Assembly: GCA_963737065.1 (NCBI GenBank)
Contig: CAVTRC010000001.1
Span: 384,001 to 448,000 of the forward strand
Origin: Candidatus Eremiobacteria bacterium
GTDB lineage: Bacteria > Vulcanimicrobiota > Vulcanimicrobiia > Vulcanimicrobiales > Vulcanimicrobiaceae
Reading direction: 5' to 3'
DNA: 64,000 nucleotides
Shown in pieces: positions 4,088 through 60,177 of the stretch (its first letter is position 1; each line of letters begins with the position of its first letter). The notes beneath the pieces were generated by a model, which ran no database searches, had not been told where the DNA came from, and saw nothing but the letters and a program-made list of their open reading frames with translations. Position numbers and translations under genes: made by a program.

Positions 4088-4589
4088 GATGCTGCGATTT
4101 ACGAATCTGCGCTTTACGTTGTCCTTGTTCTCCTAGCGATTGGCACGGCTTCTAGTGGCCGCTAAGAAACTTCTTCGCCAGTAACTACGCCTATGCGAGC
4201 AACAGTAGTGCAGCCGTGACAACGAATCCAGACGGCTCCATTGTTAGCGACGTGGCGCCGACGCCGCGCATGGGCCATGGCACCCGCACATCATGCCGTT
4301 CATCGCACAATCAGCGGTCGCGAACTGGTCCGCCGGATTCGATGGCTCTCCCGTGATCCTGGGCCCATACCAGCGCGCGTACGAGCCGAATACCATCTTT
4401 ATTCCCGTGCGCGCGTGGTCGGACGGCACGGCCGACGTGCTCAATCGCGCGTGACACGTACATAATTTCCGCGCGCCACGCTGCTCGCCAGGTAACGATC
4501 ACTACAGACGTTCCGCGTAGGAAGCGGTGGTTCTAGACGCTACCGCGACAATGGCTCTTGAGTGGCGGTGCGATTCTACCTACCATCTT

Positions 4590-9602: not shown

Positions 9603-9614
9603 TTTGACGAGCGA

Positions 9615-9636
9615 CGGGTAGTGCCTCCACTACCCG
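9615..9636 (-). terminator. Intergenic hairpin downstream of alanine racemase
   Basis: CGGGTAGTG-cctc-CACTACCCG perfect 9-bp stem; no clear U-tract. Confidence 0.4.
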
Positions 9637-9665
9637 CCTACAAACAAGAATTGACTTACATCAAT

Positions 9666-27605: not shown

Positions 27606-27634
27606 AAGACGCCGGTGCGATGCGCCGGCGTCTT
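27606..27634. terminator. Hairpin between convergent katG and DUF4432 genes
   Basis: AAGACGCCGG-tgcgatgcg-CCGGCGTCTT. Confidence 0.7.
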
Positions 27635-35386: not shown

Positions 35387-35409
35387 TCCGAACGCGACAA
35401 CCGCATACG

Positions 35410-35437
35410 AACGGCGCTCGAGAAATCGAGCGCCGTT
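35410..35437. terminator. Hairpin between convergent S53 peptidase and ctaG
   Basis: AACGGCGCTCGA-gaaa-TCGAGCGCCGTT perfect 12-bp stem with GAAA loop. Confidence 0.8.
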
Positions 35438-35451
35438 TCGCGTAATCGTTG

Positions 35452-42363: not shown

Positions 42364-43385
42364 ATGGAAGTTTCCGTTCGAACCGAGACGTGGGCATTTC
42401 GATACCCTTTTCGCATTACCGGATATGAGTGGACCGATCAGGAGCTCGTCGTCGCCGAAGTGGCGGACGGCGACCGGCGCGGTCGCGGTGAGGCTCTCGG
42501 CGTTTATTATAAGCAAGAGACGGCGTCACGCCTGAGTGCGGAAATCGTTGCGGCGGCGCAACGCGCGACGAACGTCGCGGAATTGACCGCCATTACTGCG
42601 TACTTGCCGCCGGGCGGCGCGAAAAACGCATTGGACTGTGCGCTATGGGAGTTGCGATCCTTGCAAGAAGCAATGCCCGTTTGGCGCCTCGCAGGCTTTG
42701 CGTCGGCTCCGCGCCCCGTTCAAACGACCTGCACGGTCGGCGCCGGTACACCGGAGGAAATGTCCGCGCGCGCTCGCGACTTTGCGACCGCTACCGCGCT
42801 GAAGCTAAAACTCGTCGGCGATGGAGCCGATGCGGAGCGCGTGCGCGCGGTTCGTACGCAACGCCCCGACGCGTGGATCGGCGTCGATGGGAATCAAGGC
42901 TTCACGCTGCAGACGCTCCACGAGCTGCTCCCGACACTGATCGCGTGTAACATTAACTTCTGGAACAGCCGTTTCCGATCGGTCGCGATGAAGATTTGGA
43001 TGACGTGGAGTCGCCCATTCCCATTGCCGCCGACGAGAGCGTGCAATCGTTGACGGATATCGAGCGGCTTGTCGGCCGGTTCGATACGATCAATATTAAG
43101 CTCGACAAGTGCGGTGGTCTCACCGACGCCCTGCGCATGCAGCAACGCGCGCGCGAGCTCGGGCTCAACGTCATGGTTGGATGCATGGGCGGCACGTCGC
43201 TTTCGATGGCTCCGGGGTTTATCGTCGCGCAACGCTGTGACGTGGTCGATCTCGACGGACCGCTCCTTCTCAAATCGGATCGTACGCCGTCGGCCACGTA
43301 CCGAGACGGCTGCATCGAGTGCCCTGAAGACGTTTGGGGATTTTCTACGTCGCTTGCCGCGCAGGAAACGCAGAGGTCAACATGA
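42364..43385 (+). CDS. Dipeptide epimerase (L-Ala-D/L-Glu epimerase, enolase superfamily), frameshifted near 42956
   Basis: GRGEA, NALDCALW, KLKL, VDGNQG, EQP, IAADES, NIKLDKCGG, DLDG. Confidence 0.88.
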
Positions 43386-50416: not shown

Positions 50417-52617
50417 GTTTCTTTGTCCGCAAAGACGCCCGCTGGGCCGAATGCCGGGACCCCTCACCGGCGGGCGCAGTCGCGACGCGCCTGCGCGGTC
50501 ATGCGGTCGTTTTTGCAGTCCTCGCGATCAGCGTATTGCTCTGGTACGCCGGCAATACGGCGATCGGCCTGGTCAGCGTTGCAAAAACCGACGGCGTCGT
50601 CACAACGCCCGGCATCACGACGACGATAGCGATCGCGCGCGATCGCCGCGGCGTCCCGCACATCCACGCCGCGACAGAGCACGATCTGTTCTTCGCGCAA
50701 GGATTTACCGAAGCGTCGGACCGTCTGTTCCAAATGGACTTGGCGCGGCGGTATGCGTACGGCCGGCTCAGCGAACTCTTTGGCTCACGTGCGCTTGGGT
50801 TGGACCAAGCAATGCGCGCGGTCGACGTCGCCGGGATTGCACGGCGTCAGTGGAGTTCGGCCGACGCCACAACGCGCGCTGCACTCTTGGCGTTTAGTGC
50901 AGGCGTGAATGAAGCAATCGACGCACAACCGTTGCCCGTTGAATTTCGTCTCTTGCTGTACCGCCCGCAACGGTGGACGCCGTACGATTCCATCGCGATC
51001 GCGACGATGGCTGCCCTCGAACTCAGCGACTCATGGCACGACATCCTCGCGCGCGACGACGCGTGGAGGCGAACCGACCCAGCATGCTATTCCGAACTCA
51101 TTCCACTTTCGGACCCGCGCTACGACGTCACCGTGGACGGAGACACCGACCCCTCTCCTCGACCGGCGAACAGATGCACGAATGAACCATCGATCGCATT
51201 TCGCGGCGCGCCGCGAATCGGAAGCAACGCGTGGGCAGCAGCCGGTTCCCGTGCGCTTGACGGCCACGCACTGCTCGCAAATGATCCGCACGTCGATGTC
51301 TCCATTCCGGCGATCTGGTACGTTATGGATCTGCGCGCGCCGGGGTTCCATGCCGCGGGCGCAACGCTGCCCGGTTTGCCGGGCATCGTGCTGGGACACA
51401 ACGAGCGCATCGCGTGGGGCGCAACCAATGCGCAAGCCGCAACGACGGTCTTATATCGCGGAACGTCTTCTCCGCGCGCGCACGGCGTTGCCGAGTGCTT
51501 TCACGTGCGCTTCTCGCGTGACGTCTGTAGAACGTACTATCGAAACGCAACGGAGTTCTACGTCTCCACCGGCGCTTCGTCGACGATCGCGGTTCGCTGG
51601 CCGGTCTATTGGCAACGGCGCGGCAGCATCACGACGGTGCTCGCGCTCGATCGAGCAAACTCCATTCGAGACGCAATGCACGTGCTCGCCTCGTACCGCG
51701 GGTCGCCGGAAAACTTCCTTGTCGCCGGCCGGGGCGGCGCAATCGCCTATCACCTCGCCGGCCTCATCCCGCTCGACGGAGCGTGGGGACGCCACGCGCA
51801 CCCGCTGTCGTTGCTGCGTACGCCGGTAAAGCTCGTAAATTTTGGCGATCTTCCGCATCGCGATCCCTCGCGCAATGCGATCCTCATCAGCGCGAACAAT
51901 AGAATGTACGGCGAGCATTATCCGCTTCGCCTATCGGCCGCGTTCGAACCGCCGTACCGCGCGTGGCGCATTGCAGCGCTCCTCCACGCGCGCGACAAGT
52001 ACGACGTTTCGTATTTTCGCATGATGCAAAACGATACATTTTCACCGATCGACGCAGAGATCGCTCGCGACCTGCGCGCTGCACAGCTGCGCCGCTGGAA
52101 CGGCCGCTTTGATCCCGAGTCGCGCCTCGCCTCAGCAGCGTACGCCGTCCGAACCGACCTCGAATCACAAACGGGATCGCTCGCGCTGTTGATGCAGCGG
52201 CTGCGCGATCCGGCGCAACGGCAGAGCGTGCAGTTTTCCGTCGACTCGACGTTCTACGGCCCCGCCGCCCGCGGGCCGTGGTCGGTGCAAGGTGCGGTGG
52301 ACGTCGAGCACCCGCTATCGCCGATGTGGTACGGCTTTTTGCGCGGGCGTCCGCTGCCGGGGAACGGCGACGAATATACGATACACGTGCAAGAAACAGG
52401 ATTTGCTCAAGGCTTTCGCGCCGTGTGGAACGCCGGCGATTGGGATGCCGGCGGCATCTCGATTCCGACCGGCGAGTCGGGCGAACCGGGCTCGCCCTAC
52501 TACGACGACGAAGCCGGCGCCTGGATCCGCGGCGAACTGCTTACGCTTCCGTTCTCCGATACGGCAGTCGCGCGAAATACCGTGCATGTATTGCGGCTGC
52601 AGGGTCCAATCCGGTGA
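50413..52617 (+). CDS. Penicillin acylase family (Ntn hydrolase, S45)
   Basis: [37 protein letters not shown]. Confidence 0.9.
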
Positions 52618-53633
52618 CAATGCTTCTGCTCGGAATCGAGACGTCGTGCGACGATACCGCGACGGCGGTCGTGCGCGACGGCCGTTCGGTGCTTTCGAGC
52701 GTCTCGACGAATCAGGATGAATTCCACGCGAAATACGGTGGCATCGTGCCCGAGATCGCGAGCCGCCAGCACGTTGCGCTCCTCTCGGCGGCCGTAGCCG
52801 ATGCGGTCGAACGCGCGAACTTTACGCTCGACGACTTGGACGGGATCGCCGTAACGCGCGGACCCGGCTTGATCGGCAGTCTCGTCGTCGGCGTCGCGGC
52901 GGCGAAAGCGCTCGCGTTTGCGCTCGACAAACCGCTCTACGGCGTCAATCATCTGCACGGACACATCTTCGCGGCGTTTCTCGATCGTGACGAACCGATT
53001 CCATTTCCGTTTCTCGCCCTGCTCGTTTCCGGAGGCCACTCGCAACTCGTTGATGTCCGTTCACCGATCGACATGCGCATCATTGGCCGCACTCGCGATG
53101 ATGCGGCGGGTGAAGCGTACGATAAAACGGCGCGGCTTCTCGGTCTGTCTTATCCCGGCGGACCGCAACTCGACCGGCTTGCGCGCGAAGGTAACCCGAA
53201 AGCACATCCGTTCCCGCGTCACCGTCCCGATCCGGGAAGCCTCGATCTTTCGTTCTCGGGCCTCAAAACATCGGTTCGCTATTTTCTCGAATCCGACGAA
53301 GGCCGACGGGCAAAACCCGAAGACGTCGCCGCATCGTTTCAAGCGGCGGTTGTCGATGTGCTCCTCGCGCGCGTTTCGCGCGCATTTGAAGACGGCGCGT
53401 ACAACGCGCTCGTGATCTCGGGCGGCGTCGCGGCGAATTCGGCGCTGCAAGAGGCGATCCGGTCGTGGAGCAAACGCAACAGCATCGCGGCCTTCATTCC
53501 GCCGCCGAAATACTGCACCGACAATGCGGCGATGATTGCCGCCGCGGCATATCATCAGCGAGAGGTCGTTGAAGTGGACGCGCTTACACTCTCGGCCGAT
53601 CCCAATCTGCCCTTTGAAATTCGCGCCGCTTAG
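52614..53633 (+). CDS. tsaD: tRNA N6-adenosine threonylcarbamoyltransferase
   Basis: LGIETSCDDT, GGIVPEIASRQH, HLHGH, VSGGHS, DDAAGEAYDK, CTDNAAMI. Confidence 0.96.
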   Translation: MTMLLLGIETSCDDTATAVVRDGRSVLSSVSTNQDEFHAKYGGIVPEIASRQHVALLSAAVADAVERANFTLDDLDGIAVTRGPGLIGSLVVGVAAAKALAFALDKPLYGVNHLHGHIFAAFLDRDEPIPFPFLALLVSGGHSQLVDVRSPIDMRIIGRTRDDAAGEAYDKTARLLGLSYPGGPQLDRLAREGNPKAHPFPRHRPDPGSLDLSFSGLKTSVRYFLESDEGRRAKPEDVAASFQAAVVDVLLARVSRAFEDGAYNALVISGGVAANSALQEAIRSWSKRNSIAAFIPPPKYCTDNAAMIAAAAYHQREVVEVDALTLSADPNLPFEIRAA

Positions 53634-53668
53634 CAACCCTTTTCGCGCAACGTGGTATATCTACAGTC

Positions 53669-54142
53669 ATGATGACGCTACGCCCCGCTTTGATCGCACT
53701 CGCCGCAGCGGCTGTTCCGTTGCTTGCTTTCGCGCAGACGAGCCTGCCGCAGTCGACGCAAGATCGTCAGCAAATTCAAAACTTGCAGTTTCAGGCGAAT
53801 CTGCCGGGAACGAGTGCGGCGGAGCGCACGCAAATCGAGCGTCAGATCAGCCAATTGCAGTACCAAATCAACACGCGCGCGCCGGTGCAGCCGATGCCCA
53901 CGCTGACGCCGTCGTGGAACGGCGGACCGCTATTCAGCGGCGGAAATCTTCCGCAGCTGACCGCGAACCCAACCTTCGCGCCGCTCTCGCCGACGATTTA
54001 CGGCTCGTGCGATTCCGACCGCGCGGTCATCTCGTATTTGACGCAACAGATTTCGCTGCCGACGACGACCCGGCAGGAACGTCTCTACGATCAAAGCCAG
54101 AGCGCGGAACTCCAAAAAGATTTGCGCGCGAAGGGTTGCTAG
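53669..54142 (+). CDS. Secreted Gln-rich hypothetical protein
   Basis: Signal peptide ending AFA; two Cys; fills gap between tsaD and the met leader. Confidence 0.65.
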   Translation: MMTLRPALIALAAAAVPLLAFAQTSLPQSTQDRQQIQNLQFQANLPGTSAAERTQIERQISQLQYQINTRAPVQPMPTLTPSWNGGPLFSGGNLPQLTANPTFAPLSPTIYGSCDSDRAVISYLTQQISLPTTTRQERLYDQSQSAELQKDLRAKGC

Positions 54143-54144
54143 TC

Positions 54145-54173
54145 TTGACGCCGCCAAACGCTCGTGATAGCCT
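54145..54173 (+). promoter_or_regulatory. Sigma70-type promoter giving a leaderless transcript at 54181
   Basis: TTGACG(54145-50)-N17-TAGCCT(54168-73) with extended TGn; ATG begins after a 7-nt gap. Confidence 0.8.
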
Positions 54174-54180
54174 TTGCGCA

Positions 54181-54264
54181 ATGTTTACTGACGTCGCGAT
54201 GATGTGCCCGATGTGCTGCATGCAAATGCGCGCGGCGCGGGCCGTCGTGGAGCGAACCGTGTAG
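54181..54264 (+). CDS. Putative Met/Cys-rich attenuator leader peptide MFTDVAMMCPMCCMQMRAARAVVERTV
   Basis: 27 codons; 8 of codons 7-16 are Met or Cys; lies between the promoter and a strong hairpin upstream of hom-metY-metX. Confidence 0.85.
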   Translation: MFTDVAMMCPMCCMQMRAARAVVERTV

Positions 54265-54284
54265 TACGCGGGATCGAATCGCAA

Positions 54285-54324
54285 ACGACGCCCCTCGCCG
54301 CAATGGCGAGGGGCGTCGTCGTTT
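54285..54324 (+). terminator. Attenuator hairpin
   Basis: ACGACGCCCCTCGCC-gcaat-GGCGAGGGGCGTCGT perfect 15-bp stem followed by CGTTT (weak U-tract). Confidence 0.8.
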
Positions 54325-54362
54325 CACTCCTCGCTTTCCCGTCTCAAAAGGAGGCATGAGGA

Positions 54363-55517
54363 ATGGTATCCACCGCGGGCATCGCGTTGCTCGGCTGCGG
54401 TACGGTCGGTGCATGCGTCGCCGAGCGTTTACTCTACGAGCGCGATGTGATCGAACGCCGCAGCGGCGTGCACTATGAACTGCGCGCAATTGCAATCCGC
54501 GACGCGACGAGAACACGGATCGAGTCGATCGACACGCGACTCTTCACGACCGATCCGCGTGCAATCGTCGAAGATTCACGCGTCGATATCGTGATCGAGT
54601 GTATCGGCGGCACGGCACAGGCGTGTGAACTCATCGAGATCGCGCTGGAACGCGGCCGGTCCGTCGTGACGGCGAACAAGGATGTGCTCGCGACGCAGGG
54701 TCCACGCCTGCAGGCTCTCGCAGCGGCGCGCGGTGCGGGTCTGCGTTACGAAGCCGCGGCGTGCGGCGCGATTCCCGTCGTACGCATGCTTTATGACGCG
54801 CTCGCAGGCGATCGTATCGACGCGCTTGCCGGCGTCGTGAACGGGACGTGCAACGCAATTCTCTCGGAGATGGACGCCGGCTCGGAATTCGCTGAAGCCG
54901 TCGCCGCGGCGCAAGCGCGTGGCTATGCCGAAGCGGACCCATCGAACGATATCGACGGCGTGGACGCCGCGCACAAGCTCGCGGTATTGATGCAGCTCGC
55001 GTTCGGTCTGGCGGTCATCTCGCCGCGCATTCGCCACACCGGGATCGCCGGCGTAACAAAACGCGAAATCGCGCGCGCGCAAGCGCTCGGCTATCGTATT
55101 CGCTTGATTGCCGCAGCAGCACGCTGCGACGACGGCGCGTTCGCCGGCGTCGCGCCGTTGCTCGTCCCGCGCGATCACCCGTTCGCAACGCTCAGCGGAC
55201 CGGAAAATATCGTCCGCGTCGCCGCCCGCGATGCCGGTCCGCTCACTATGCGCGGGCGCGGTGCCGGCGGACCGGCAACCGCGTCGGCGATCCTCGGCGA
55301 CGTCGTTTCGTCGCTGCGCGCGCTCGGCGAGCGTCGCGACGTTGCACGTCAGCTGCGTGCGCTTGAACCGGCGCTCGACGTTGCCCCGATCTTCACCGGT
55401 CTTCCGCGTCATCCGGAACTCCCACGCTACGCGTTGTGGGATGACACACTACTTGATGCTCCCGTCTCGCACGCTCAAGCGTGCGTTGTTATGACGGGGA
55501 AAGGAACACGGCACTCA
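54363..55517 (+). CDS. hom: Homoserine dehydrogenase (no evident ACT domain); reads in frame into metY in this sequence
   Basis: [65 protein letters not shown]; true 3' end uncertain. Confidence 0.88.
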
Positions 55518-56813
55518 ATGAGCATTACGCTCGAAACGGACCACCCGCAATCGTTCGATACCGTCGCGGTGCACGGCGGTCACAACGGCGATCCGGCGAC
55601 GAAATCGCGCGCCGTTCCGATCTATCAAACGACCTCCTATCTGTTCGATTCAACGGAACACGCGGGCAAGCTCTTCGCACTGGAAGAGTTCGGCAACATC
55701 TATACGCGCATCAACAATCCGACCACCGACGTATTCGAACAACGCGTTGCGGCGCTCGAACGCGGTGCGGGTGCGCTCGCGGTCTCCAGCGGACAAGCCG
55801 CCGTCGTGTATTCGATCCTCAATCTCGCGAAGAACGGCGACCATCTCGTCAGCAGCGCATCCCTGTACGGCGGAACCTATAACGCGTTCACGCACACGCT
55901 CAAACGCTTCGGCATCGAGGTCAGCCTCGTCGACTTCAACGATCCCCATAGCGTCGAAGCGGCAATTCGTCCGAATACGAAAGCGCTCTTCGCGGAAACG
56001 ATCGGCAACCCGAAGATCGACGTGCTCGATGTGGAACTCTATGCCGAACTCGCGCACCGCCATGGTCTTCCGCTGATCGTCGACAACACGCTCGCAACAC
56101 CATACCTGTTGCGTCCGATCGAACACGGCGCCGATATCGTCGTACATTCGGCGACGAAATTCATCGGCGGGCACGGTACCGCGATCGGCGGCGTAATCGT
56201 CGACGGCGGGACGTTCGACTGGACCATCAATCCGCGCTTCGCCGAGTTCATCGAGCCCGATCCGTCGTACCACGGATTGCAATACGCCGCCGCGTTCGGT
56301 AATATCGCCTACATCGTCAAAGCGCGCGTTCAACTCCTGCGCAACATCGGCGCCGCGCTCTCTCCGTTCAACGCATGGCTTCTCTTGCAAGGCATCGAAA
56401 CGCTCGGTCTGCGCGTAGAACGTCACAGCAGTAACGCGCTCGCCGTCGCCGAGTTCCTCTCGCAGCACCCTCGAGTGACAAGCGTCGCATATCCGGGTTT
56501 GCCGGGTGATCCCGCACACGAACGCGCGCGTAAATATCTGCCGAACGGCGCCGGAGCCATCGTGACGTTTAGCGTTGAGGGCGGCGAGCGTGAAGCAAAA
56601 AGCGTCATCGATCGCCTCAGGCTCTTCTCTCTACTCGCAAACGTCGGTGATGCAAAGTCGCTCGTCATTCACCCTGCGAGCACGACGCATCAGCAACTGA
56701 GCGACGCCGAACGCCTGCAGAGCGGCGTCGACGCATCGACGGTCCGGCTCTCGGTCGGCATCGAGGACATCAACGATATCATCGCCGACTTGCGTCAAGC
56801 GCTGGCGGACTAA
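55518..56813 (+). CDS. metY: O-acetylhomoserine aminocarboxypropyltransferase (sulfhydrylase)
   Basis: [51 protein letters not shown]; own AAAGGA RBS-like sequence before ATG 55518. Confidence 0.93.
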
Positions 56814-56816
56814 CCG

Positions 56817-57764
56817 TTGCGCGAGCTGACGATCGGCATCGGATCGCTTCGGCTGCACGATGGCACGCTGCTGCACGACGTGCAGCAGCGTGTGACGATG
56901 TATGGCTCTCCATCTGCCGCTCGCGACAACATCGTGCTCGTCAATCACGCACTGACCGGTTCGAGCCGGGCGGCGGAGTGGTGGCCCGGCATCGTCGGCG
57001 AAGGTGCGCTCTTCGACCCGTCCGGCTGGTGTATCATCGGCATCAACGTACTCGGCAGTTGCTACGGCTCGACGTGGACGCCGCGCGTCACCGTTGCAGA
57101 CATCGTGTGCGCGCAAGCGCGCGTTCTCGATGAACTCGGGATCGAGTCGGCCGCCTTTGCCGTCGGTGGATCGCTCGGCGGCATGCAGGCACTGCAATGG
57201 GCGCTCGATTTTCCCGGCCGCATCAAAAACGCGATCGTCATCGGCGCGCACGACCATCACAGTGCAATGGGAATCGCGCTCAACGCGATTCAACGTGAAT
57301 GTCTTCAACTCGATCCGGTTCGCGGTTTACGTACGGCCCGCAAACTCGCAATGCTGACCTATAAATCCGAGGAACTCTTGAACGCCCGCCACGGCCGTAA
57401 CCCGGATCGCAACGATCGGTCGCGTTTCGACGTCGAAGGGTACCTGGATTTGCAAGCGGCGCGCTTCATCGGACGGATGGACGCCCGCACCTACACTACA
57501 TTGACGCACGCCATGGATTCATTCGACGTCCGCAGACGATCGCTCCATGGACCGCGCGTCACGTTCGTCGGAATCAGTTCCGACTGGCTGTTCCGCCCGC
57601 ACGACGTGCGTGCAGCGGCCGAAAAATTCGGTGCTGACTATATCGAGCTAGAGACGGACCACGGGCACGATGCGTTTCTCGCCGAATCGGGCCGCCTCGC
57701 CGAGCTCCTCCGGCCGGCGATTCATATTCGCAAAAGCGCCGGAACGAGCGTTATCGCGCCGTAA
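56817..57764 (+). CDS. metX: Homoserine O-acetyltransferase
   Basis: NHALTG, NVLGSCYGST, GGSLGGMQAL, SSDWLF, HGHDAFL. Confidence 0.92.
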   Translation: MRELTIGIGSLRLHDGTLLHDVQQRVTMYGSPSAARDNIVLVNHALTGSSRAAEWWPGIVGEGALFDPSGWCIIGINVLGSCYGSTWTPRVTVADIVCAQARVLDELGIESAAFAVGGSLGGMQALQWALDFPGRIKNAIVIGAHDHHSAMGIALNAIQRECLQLDPVRGLRTARKLAMLTYKSEELLNARHGRNPDRNDRSRFDVEGYLDLQAARFIGRMDARTYTTLTHAMDSFDVRRRSLHGPRVTFVGISSDWLFRPHDVRAAAEKFGADYIELETDHGHDAFLAESGRLAELLRPAIHIRKSAGTSVIAP

Positions 57765-60144: not shown

Positions 60145-60177
60145 GGGCGGCGCGAGCGCCACGCGCTCGCGCCGCCC
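60145..60177 (+). terminator. GC-rich hairpin after Mn-catalase
   Basis: GGGCGGCGCGAGCGC-cac-GCGCTCGCGCCGCCC perfect 15-bp stem; no U-tract. Confidence 0.6.

Follow-up and report, generated by a model that had tools for sequence, protein, structure and literature searches.

The question raised by this locus is how the genes for homocysteine synthesis might be adjusted to the supply of sulfur amino acids in a bacterium of a candidate phylum. The stretch of DNA analysed (the window; 64 kb, to which all coordinates refer) comes from Candidatus Eremiobacteria bacterium, assembly GCA_963737065.1, contig CAVTRC010000001.1, positions 384,001-448,000 of the forward strand, and has a GC content of about 61%. 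In this window a short open reading frame (sORF) of 27 codons stands ahead of hom, metY and metX, and the initial annotation of the DNA proposed that ribosomes stalling on its Met and Cys codons switch the operon on. The analysis described here favours, with a probability of roughly 0.7, a classical ribosome-mediated transcription attenuator of hom-metY-metX that senses both Met-tRNA and Cys-tRNA and is probably made as a leaderless transcript.

The sORF (MFTDVAMMCPMCCMQMRAARAVVERTV; 54181-54264, plus strand) starts with the ATG at 54181 and ends with the TAG at 54262-54264. The sequence and its translation agree with the earlier description of 27 codons with five Met and three Cys within codons 7-16: the internal Met residues occupy codons 7, 8, 11, 14 and 16, and the Cys residues, all encoded by TGC, occupy codons 9, 12 and 13. 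This tract, MMCPMCCMQM (54199-54228, plus strand; five ATG and three TGC codons), is the putative sensing element and constitutes region 1 of the structures described below. Met and Cys residues were counted in every stop-free 10-residue segment in all six frames of the window (104,609 segments), and the segment at 54199-54228, with 8 of 10, was the sole one to reach 8. At least 6 of 10 were found in seven segments, six of them inside the sORF; the seventh, CAMNGMMCGC (6/10), lies at about 4280-4309 on the minus strand. The GC content at third codon positions (GC3) is 0.86 in the sORF versus 0.72 in the downstream genes, and the sORF is predicted to be translated. No Shine-Dalgarno (SD)-like sequence was found upstream of its ATG. 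The distance from the leader ATG to the hom ATG at 54363 is 182 nucleotides (nt), and the sORF itself lies 98 nt ahead of hom.

The sORF is interlocked with a complete set of mutually exclusive helices, 1:2, 2:3 and 3:4. Region 2 (54232-54248, plus strand) lies within sORF codons 18-23 and can be the partner of either region 1, giving an anti-antiterminator, or region 3, giving an antiterminator. Region 3 (54285-54301) and region 4 (54305-54319), both on the plus strand and identified by complementarity, provide the 5' and 3' arms of a terminator-like hairpin, and region 3 serves also as the antiterminator strand. Together they give a GC-rich stem of 15 bp without a mismatch, closed by a loop of 5 nt (54285-54299 / 54305-54319; -34.5 kcal/mol). 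This hairpin is second among the listed window hairpins of at least 9 pairs, both in the number of pairs and in that of G-C pairs, and ends 43 nt ahead of the hom ATG. Neither inspection of the sequence nor a generic scan gave a promoter-like sequence in these 43 nt, so hom would be expressible only by read-through of the hairpin. Regions 2 and 3 are 88% complementary over 17 nt, and the energy of their duplex (-30.6 kcal/mol) was not equalled in any of 2000 dinucleotide shuffles (mean -20.5 +/- 2.6) or in any of 1987 random 95-mers from the window (mean -17.3 +/- 3.6). Together with the small hairpin that it encloses, the 2:3 structure reaches -40.0 kcal/mol. The 1:2 hairpin (54199-54248) has an energy of -28.2 kcal/mol and was matched in stability by 18 of 1000 shuffles, and the fold of the 185-nt leader as a whole (-93 kcal/mol, z = -5.47) by 0 of 200.

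These helices suggest the following course of events. Transcription would start at, or one base ahead of, the A of ATG 54181, and the peptide would be translated from a leaderless mRNA. With plentiful Met-tRNA and Cys-tRNA the ribosome would pass codons 7-16 and occupy region 2 while regions 3 and 4 are being synthesized; region 3 would then pair with region 4 and transcription would halt about 40 nt ahead of hom. If either charged tRNA were scarce, the ribosome would stall within 54199-54228 and cover region 1, the free region 2 would capture region 3 on its emergence, and, with no terminator formed, the polymerase would continue into hom-metY-metX. Without any translation helix 1:2 and then helix 3:4 would form, so that the operon would also be off, which would shield it in addition from read-through from the upstream gene. 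The helices and the terminator-like stem, which the initial annotation had not reported, are the strongest evidence for the idea of stalling on Met and Cys codons; the response of the operon to Met or Cys limitation is predicted.

The scheme was examined by folding the leader with an assumed ribosome mask covering 15 nt on the upstream and 13 nt on the downstream side of the first base of the A site. With the A site at any of codons 7-13 this mask does not extend beyond 54230, so that region 2 is free, and with the ribosome at the sORF stop codon the 1:2 hairpin and the terminator form. When the RNA is free from 54229 onwards, the 2:3 structure (-40.0 kcal/mol) is the minimum-energy fold for transcripts ending at 54302-54310, in which region 4 is incomplete.

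The placement of the transcription start at 54180 or 54181 follows from the geometry of a promoter-like sequence. The -35-like hexamer TTGACG (54145-54150, plus strand) begins 3 nt past the stop codon of the upstream gene and is separated by 17 nt from TAGCCT (54168-54173), which together with the TG at 54165-54166 forms an extended -10-like element of the TANNNT type, TGaTAGCCT (54165-54173, plus strand); 7 nt lie between the end of TAGCCT and ATG 54181. The spacing given for these elements in the initial annotation is borne out by the sequence, and their geometry fits a leaderless start; the transcript carrying the leader peptide is probably leaderless. The composite pattern TTGAC-N17-19-TANNNT-N5-8-RTG has one match in the window, at this site, with 0.15 expected.

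Close relatives were sought by scanning genome contigs with the Hom domain as a query, which gave 17 loci, and one of them (L001) was close. Its Hom protein is 76% identical, its gene order is hom (376 amino acids, aa), metY (440 aa, overlapping hom by ATGA) and metX (315 aa), and its contig begins 122 nt upstream of hom. This contig opens with 22 nt that are identical (22/22) to the end of the sORF, its TAG included, so the last 6 nt of region 2 are identical as well. The spacer between the sORF end and the terminator has diverged and contains a 3-nt indel. In the 5' arm of the terminator all 15 stem positions are identical; the 3' arm carries one A-to-G change, which turns a U-A pair into U-G, and the loop carries one change. 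The tail after the stem reads TCTTATCTCC in the relative. In this comparison the RNA-acting part of the sORF is better conserved than its surroundings. The closest proteins to Hom, up to 83% identical, are named Candidatus Eremiobacteraeota, Baltobacteraceae, Aquilonibacter, Vulcanimicrobiaceae and Tumulicola, and 3 of the 120 listed Hom homologues (P0141, P0144 and P0185) have over-called N-termini that translate, with frame switches, the counterpart of the terminator and SD region of the window. These extensions match TTPLA..., GGGRRRF, AFPSQKE and HSPLSRRKRRQEE (tblastn E values of 3e-5 to 0.06 against the 238-nt leader) and lend indirect support to conservation of the terminator region. 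The other 16 loci, with Hom identities of 33-47%, are Chloroflexota or Clostridia-like; two of them (L009 and L012) have less than 50 nt of upstream sequence and are uninformative.

Several observations weigh against the attenuator and have to be set beside this evidence. The terminator is the minimum-energy state at equilibrium in all nine ribosome masks, and antitermination must therefore be kinetic; moreover, a ribosome stalled at the last Met codon (54226) would mask part of region 2. Shortage of methionine also limits initiator tRNA and would lower initiation at the sORF, which opposes induction. The composite promoter-start pattern was matched somewhere in 15 of 100 shuffles of the window and alone gives modest support, and a generic sigma-70 scan of 53400-54900 listed no promoter, because TAGCCT fits TATAAT at only three of six positions. 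As a U-tract, the sequence following the terminator stem (CGTTTCACTCC; 54320-54330, plus strand) is weak, with no more than three consecutive T, and a generic terminator scan omitted this site as failing its T-run criterion. From the comparative side, compensatory double changes were found in 0 of 37 pairs, in a comparison of two sequences, and the L001 contig, starting at the 22nd-last base of the sORF, covers no Met/Cys tract, with no other close relative among the 17 loci. Among the distant hom loci, 14 extend 500 nt upstream of the gene; all are from other phyla, and none exceeded 3 of 10 Met+Cys. Finally, since the assembly may carry indel errors, the exact sORF frame is that of a single sequence.

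The weak tail is common to other hairpins of the window. GC-rich hairpins without a U-tract stand at gene ends at 27606-27634, 35409-35438, 60145-60177 and 9613-9638, the second of these ending ...GCCGTTT followed by CGCG. If they are terminators, they are of a U-poor intrinsic type, and since they are equally U-poor the weak tail is no specific argument against termination at the 3:4 hairpin, which is predicted to terminate transcription.

The hairpin is followed by a second structure, in which the hom SD is hidden. The SD GGAGG (54350-54354) lies 8 nt ahead of the hom ATG, and the strand CCUC-CUUU (54329-54337) pairs with AAAGGAGG (54347-54354) to give an SD-sequestering hairpin (54329-54354, plus strand). 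In L001 every base of its paired strands is identical, and the whole stretch from CTCCTCGC to the SD shows a single difference, at a loop position (T to G at 54343). Region 4 has an alternative partner here: because CCCCTCGCC (54291-54299) and CTCCTCGCT (54327-54335) are near-repeats, it can take nearly the same anti-SD strand, 54305-54313 pairing with 54327-54335 (9 bp, -16.3 kcal/mol), and this pairing is possible in L001 (62-117) too. The folding model suggests that the pairing of region 4 with the anti-SD strand may couple antitermination to exposure of the hom SD and so to translation. A relay in which 2:3 pairing frees the SD was considered and set aside, as the SD stays paired, in a different small hairpin, when 2:3 is enforced; it is kept as a speculative extra.

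The SD-hiding hairpin and the weak U-tract raise the matter of whether the same sORF, still sensing Met and Cys, has a translational or Rho-dependent output, in which remodelling by the ribosome frees or hides the hom SD and any transcriptional effect is secondary polarity. The full conservation of the hairpin speaks for this, as does the region 4/anti-SD pairing, which would link helix 2:3 to the SD, and the mycobacterial Cys system is, in the portion of the source available, translational and without a terminator (10.1101/834739). Release of the SD is, however, not clearly predicted from the enforced 2:3 fold, the combination of an antiterminator with the perfect, GC-rich 15-bp hairpin that it overlaps is just the design of a transcriptional switch, and the U-poor gene-end hairpins take away the force of the weak tail; an output of this kind, as a rival or as an addition to termination, is considered improbable.

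Still less probable is an RNA sensor of a kind not yet described, binding a metabolite (SAM, that is S-adenosylmethionine, or homocysteine, for example) or a protein, with the hairpins as its expression platform and the sORF as a by-product. In its favour, methionine genes are usually governed by a SAM riboswitch, a T-box or a repressor, the degree of structure in the leader is unusual, and such conservation as was found concerns nucleotides and is confined to the structured 3' part. The view of the initial annotation that the leader contains no SAM riboswitch or T-box was upheld by an Rfam scan: no match at the gathering score was found in the whole window, and the seven weak matches at E <= 10 in 53400-54800 (best E 0.2), all far below gathering, include no SAM or T-box family. 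At the 17 loci found with Hom, Rfam at the gathering score likewise gave no riboswitch; the single match, SraC/RyeA in L014, lies over 3 kb upstream of hom and is unrelated. No Rfam family thus matches, and there is no room for an aptamer, since nearly all RNA upstream of the terminator is sORF. It is also very unlikely that a cluster of 8 of 10 Met/Cys residues would stand by chance in frame with a 5'-proximal ATG ahead of sulfur amino acid genes, and the GC3 of the sORF fits a translated frame. The least likely of the explanations weighed, with very little in its favour, is a free-standing small Met/Cys-rich protein, for instance metal- or redox-active, with the hairpin being merely the terminator of the sORF or of the upstream gene. 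Cys/Met-rich motifs of the CPMCC kind are able to bind soft metals, and annotation widely misses small proteins, but the searches for homologues or families of the peptide were negative, hom depends on read-through of the hairpin, and the complementarity of the 3' part of the sORF to a terminator arm would be purposeless.

The searches with the peptide itself were as follows. Pfam and NCBIfam gave no match. A 30-residue query containing the sORF, compared with 1.84 billion representative proteins, had a single match, a protein of 401 aa (P0242; E 3.2e-4), which was rejected as a homologue and taken as a compositional match only, as it aligned in five short separate stretches; presumably this is a repeat protein rich in Met and Cys that has no relation to the sORF. 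A 40-residue query with the sORF gave no candidate among proteins of 22-70 aa, a result of little weight since small open reading frames (ORFs) are rarely annotated.

The type of switch is well known. As in the enterobacterial attenuators (trp, his, leu, thr, ilv, pheA), a leader ORF rich in codons for the product is followed by three overlapping helices with a terminator before the first gene, a design described in 10.1101/834739 and PMC4007540 (parts available). The locus differs from these attenuators in its Met and Cys codons, the lack of an SD with a probably leaderless start, the weak U-tract, and a stop codon of the sORF that lies past region 2 and not before it. The thr and ilv leaders, too, sense more than one amino acid. 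As a rule, methionine is assigned to control by riboswitches, T-boxes or repressors, and not to control by leader peptides. SAM riboswitches, Met T-boxes and MetJ/MetR act on the same targets hom, metX and metY with the same purpose of feedback, whereas here no RNA element of these kinds could be detected, and the ribosome would read charged tRNA, in place of an RNA binding SAM or uncharged tRNA.

The methionine versions reported to date are all predictions. In Campylobacter jejuni a predicted 20-aa leader peptide with three Met, MetL, precedes metBA (cj1727c-1726c) on a short RNA ending just past its stop codon, and attenuation through Met-tRNA was proposed (PMC3847290); its translation-initiation peaks were seen by ribosome profiling (Ribo-seq), and a second Met-rich sORF precedes a methionine transporter (PMC11955535), as far as the available portions of both sources go. 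The likeness to the sORF described here, a short ORF with Met codons ahead of methionine-biosynthesis genes, is functional only: according to the same portions MetL has a ribosome-binding site, is not leaderless and is not reported to be enriched in Cys. The metL of Streptomyces lividans TK24, a predicted leaderless 29-aa peptide ending ...ARCMCRRMCAF upstream of metNIQ, for which a methionine-dependent attenuator was proposed (PMC8079986, available in part), resembles the sORF in its mixed Met/Cys cluster and in being leaderless, as the sORF here is presumed to be. In the part available it differs in its target, a methionine importer, and in the position and composition of its cluster (at the peptide end, with two internal Met and three Cys), and its authors noted no typical Rho-independent terminator (PMC8079986), whereas the leader described here has an explicit terminator/antiterminator pair.

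Cysteine codons are read in the mycobacterial polycysteine leaderless sORFs (Ms5788A and relatives), in which stalling at Cys codons relieves repression of sulfur and cysteine genes; this control was tested with start, nonsense and codon mutants and was translational, the transcriptional reporter being insensitive to cysteine (10.1101/834739, in the portion available). As that portion describes the class, a run of consecutive Cys near the 3' end of the sORF base-pairs with the SD belonging to the following gene, and there is no terminator. Here three Cys, two of them adjacent, are mixed with Met in the middle of the ORF, the tract pairs with region 2 and not with the SD, and a terminator-like hairpin is present; the sORF is not a member of that class. 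The partly available report on Deinococcus deserti predicts 14 leaderless leader peptides, among them a Met-rich one for a Met-tRNA ligase gene and one with Cys-Cys for cysS (PMC4007540, Table S9). The Met-rich one thus precedes a tRNA ligase gene, all of these are predictions, and for the D. deserti pair of metX and O-acetylhomoserine sulfhydrylase the same portion gives a 249-nt leader and lists no leader peptide (PMC4007540). Seliverstov et al. gave, in the part of their paper available, no RNA element for actinobacterial methionine operons and described Cys leader peptides without terminators (PMC1262725).

In view of the predictions in C. jejuni, D. deserti and, with mixed Met and Cys, S. 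lividans, the initial remark that no characterised mixed Met/Cys leader of this kind was known was too strong a claim of novelty. Within the literature covered, from which most subscription journals are absent, neither an experimentally tested Met-responsive leader-peptide attenuator nor any attenuation in Eremiobacterota was found. The Met leader peptides published there are predictions of unclear terminator/antiterminator anatomy, and the present leader of about 180 nt is structurally explicit and statistically well supported. It is quite likely that the locus represents an unusually clear leader-peptide attenuator with mixed Met/Cys codons in a candidate phylum, of moderate novelty; the structure supports this view well and conservation only in part, the thin comparative evidence being its chief weakness. 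The leader precedes direct-sulfhydrylation genes in a phylum of which hardly any member has been cultured and for which there is no genetics, and, if the attenuator is real, Eremiobacterota use ribosome-mediated attenuation and probably leaderless translation, which bears on their annotation. It also poses the puzzle of an attenuator sensing the amino acid that is required to initiate its own leader peptide.

A wider interpretation is offered with considerable doubt. The leader would be a single sensor of sulfur amino acids replacing SAM riboswitches in Eremiobacterota, in which a stall at Met or Cys opens the sole sulfide-fixing branch, hom-metX-metY, through a dual-level relay: off with helices 1:2 and 3:4 formed and the SD hidden, on with helix 2:3 formed and region 4 taking the anti-SD strand. 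If the dual sensing were true, cysteine would also depend on the hom-metX-metY branch, by way of either a bifunctional O-acetylhomoserine/O-acetylserine sulfhydrylase or reverse transsulfuration. If the relay of five or six strands were true, this would be the first fully anatomised Met-responsive attenuator, with dual control of transcription and translation.

The genes following the leader were assigned by family matches, by which the products are predicted to make homocysteine (Hom, O-acetylhomoserine sulfhydrylase and a MetX-like acetyltransferase). The sORF had been placed ahead of three genes; in the assembly there are two ORFs, a Hom-MetY fusion of 816 aa (54363-56813, plus strand) and a metX-like homoserine O-acetyltransferase gene (315 aa; 56817-57764, plus strand). 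Residues 1-330 of the fusion match homoserine dehydrogenase without an ACT domain, the Hom part being residues 1-376, and residues 395-815 match O-acetylhomoserine sulfhydrylase/homocysteine synthase, MetY starting at M377 (ATG 55491). The product of the second ORF is an alpha/beta hydrolase whose best NCBIfam matches are MetX models, below the equivalog cut-offs.

The fusion is caused by one extra A (AA at 55477-55478; a single A in L001, 1235-1253), 14 nt ahead of the metY ATG. If this A is removed, Hom becomes a protein of 376 aa that ends in ...HAQRALL-stop and overlaps metY by ATGA. Such an end resembles 10 of the C-termini of 11 relatives, of which nine end ...RALS or ...RAFS and a tenth ...SAFS, with P0139 (386 aa) differing, and none of the 120 best proteins of 448-1428 aa, except the one of the window itself, covers more than 56% of the fusion. 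An assembly error of one base and a genuine, recent fusion of Hom and MetY are equally likely. The start codon of metX is a TTG 3 nt past the metY stop (TAA CCG TTG, 56811-56819), compared with an ATG overlapping the stop (TAATG) at 2570-2574 in L001; no SD precedes metX in either, which suggests translational coupling.

Upstream of the leader lies a gene of 157 aa (53669-54142), which ends with TAG at 54140-54142, has a GC3 of 0.73 and is separated from hom by an intergenic region of 220 nt. Its product has no Pfam or NCBIfam family; it is Gln-rich with a C-terminal Cys, and its N-terminus looks, by eye, like a signal peptide. The gene has no terminator of its own ahead of the attenuator hairpin, and its transcripts therefore probably end there. 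Other frames across the leader were rejected as genes: a 242-aa frame at 53536-54264 is not considered coding because of its GC3 of 0.50-0.54 and its overlap with the real upstream gene, and the minus-strand ORFs 54027-54284 and 54139-54516 as well as the plus-strand ORF 54204-54359 have GC3 values of 0.55-0.62 and no Pfam match.

Two further irregularities were noted elsewhere in the window. A gene of the mandelate racemase/enolase superfamily at 42364-43385 is split into two overlapping ORFs, the first holding the N-terminal domain and part of the C-terminal domain and the second the remainder of the latter, which suggests a frameshift, either in a pseudogene or as a further assembly indel. 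The ORF of TsaD (tRNA threonylcarbamoyl transferase; 52278-53633) has an Arg-rich N-terminal extension of about 100 residues, which is probably an over-call, as the Pfam match begins at residue 138 and the Met of MLLLGIETSCDD (residue 105) is a plausible start.

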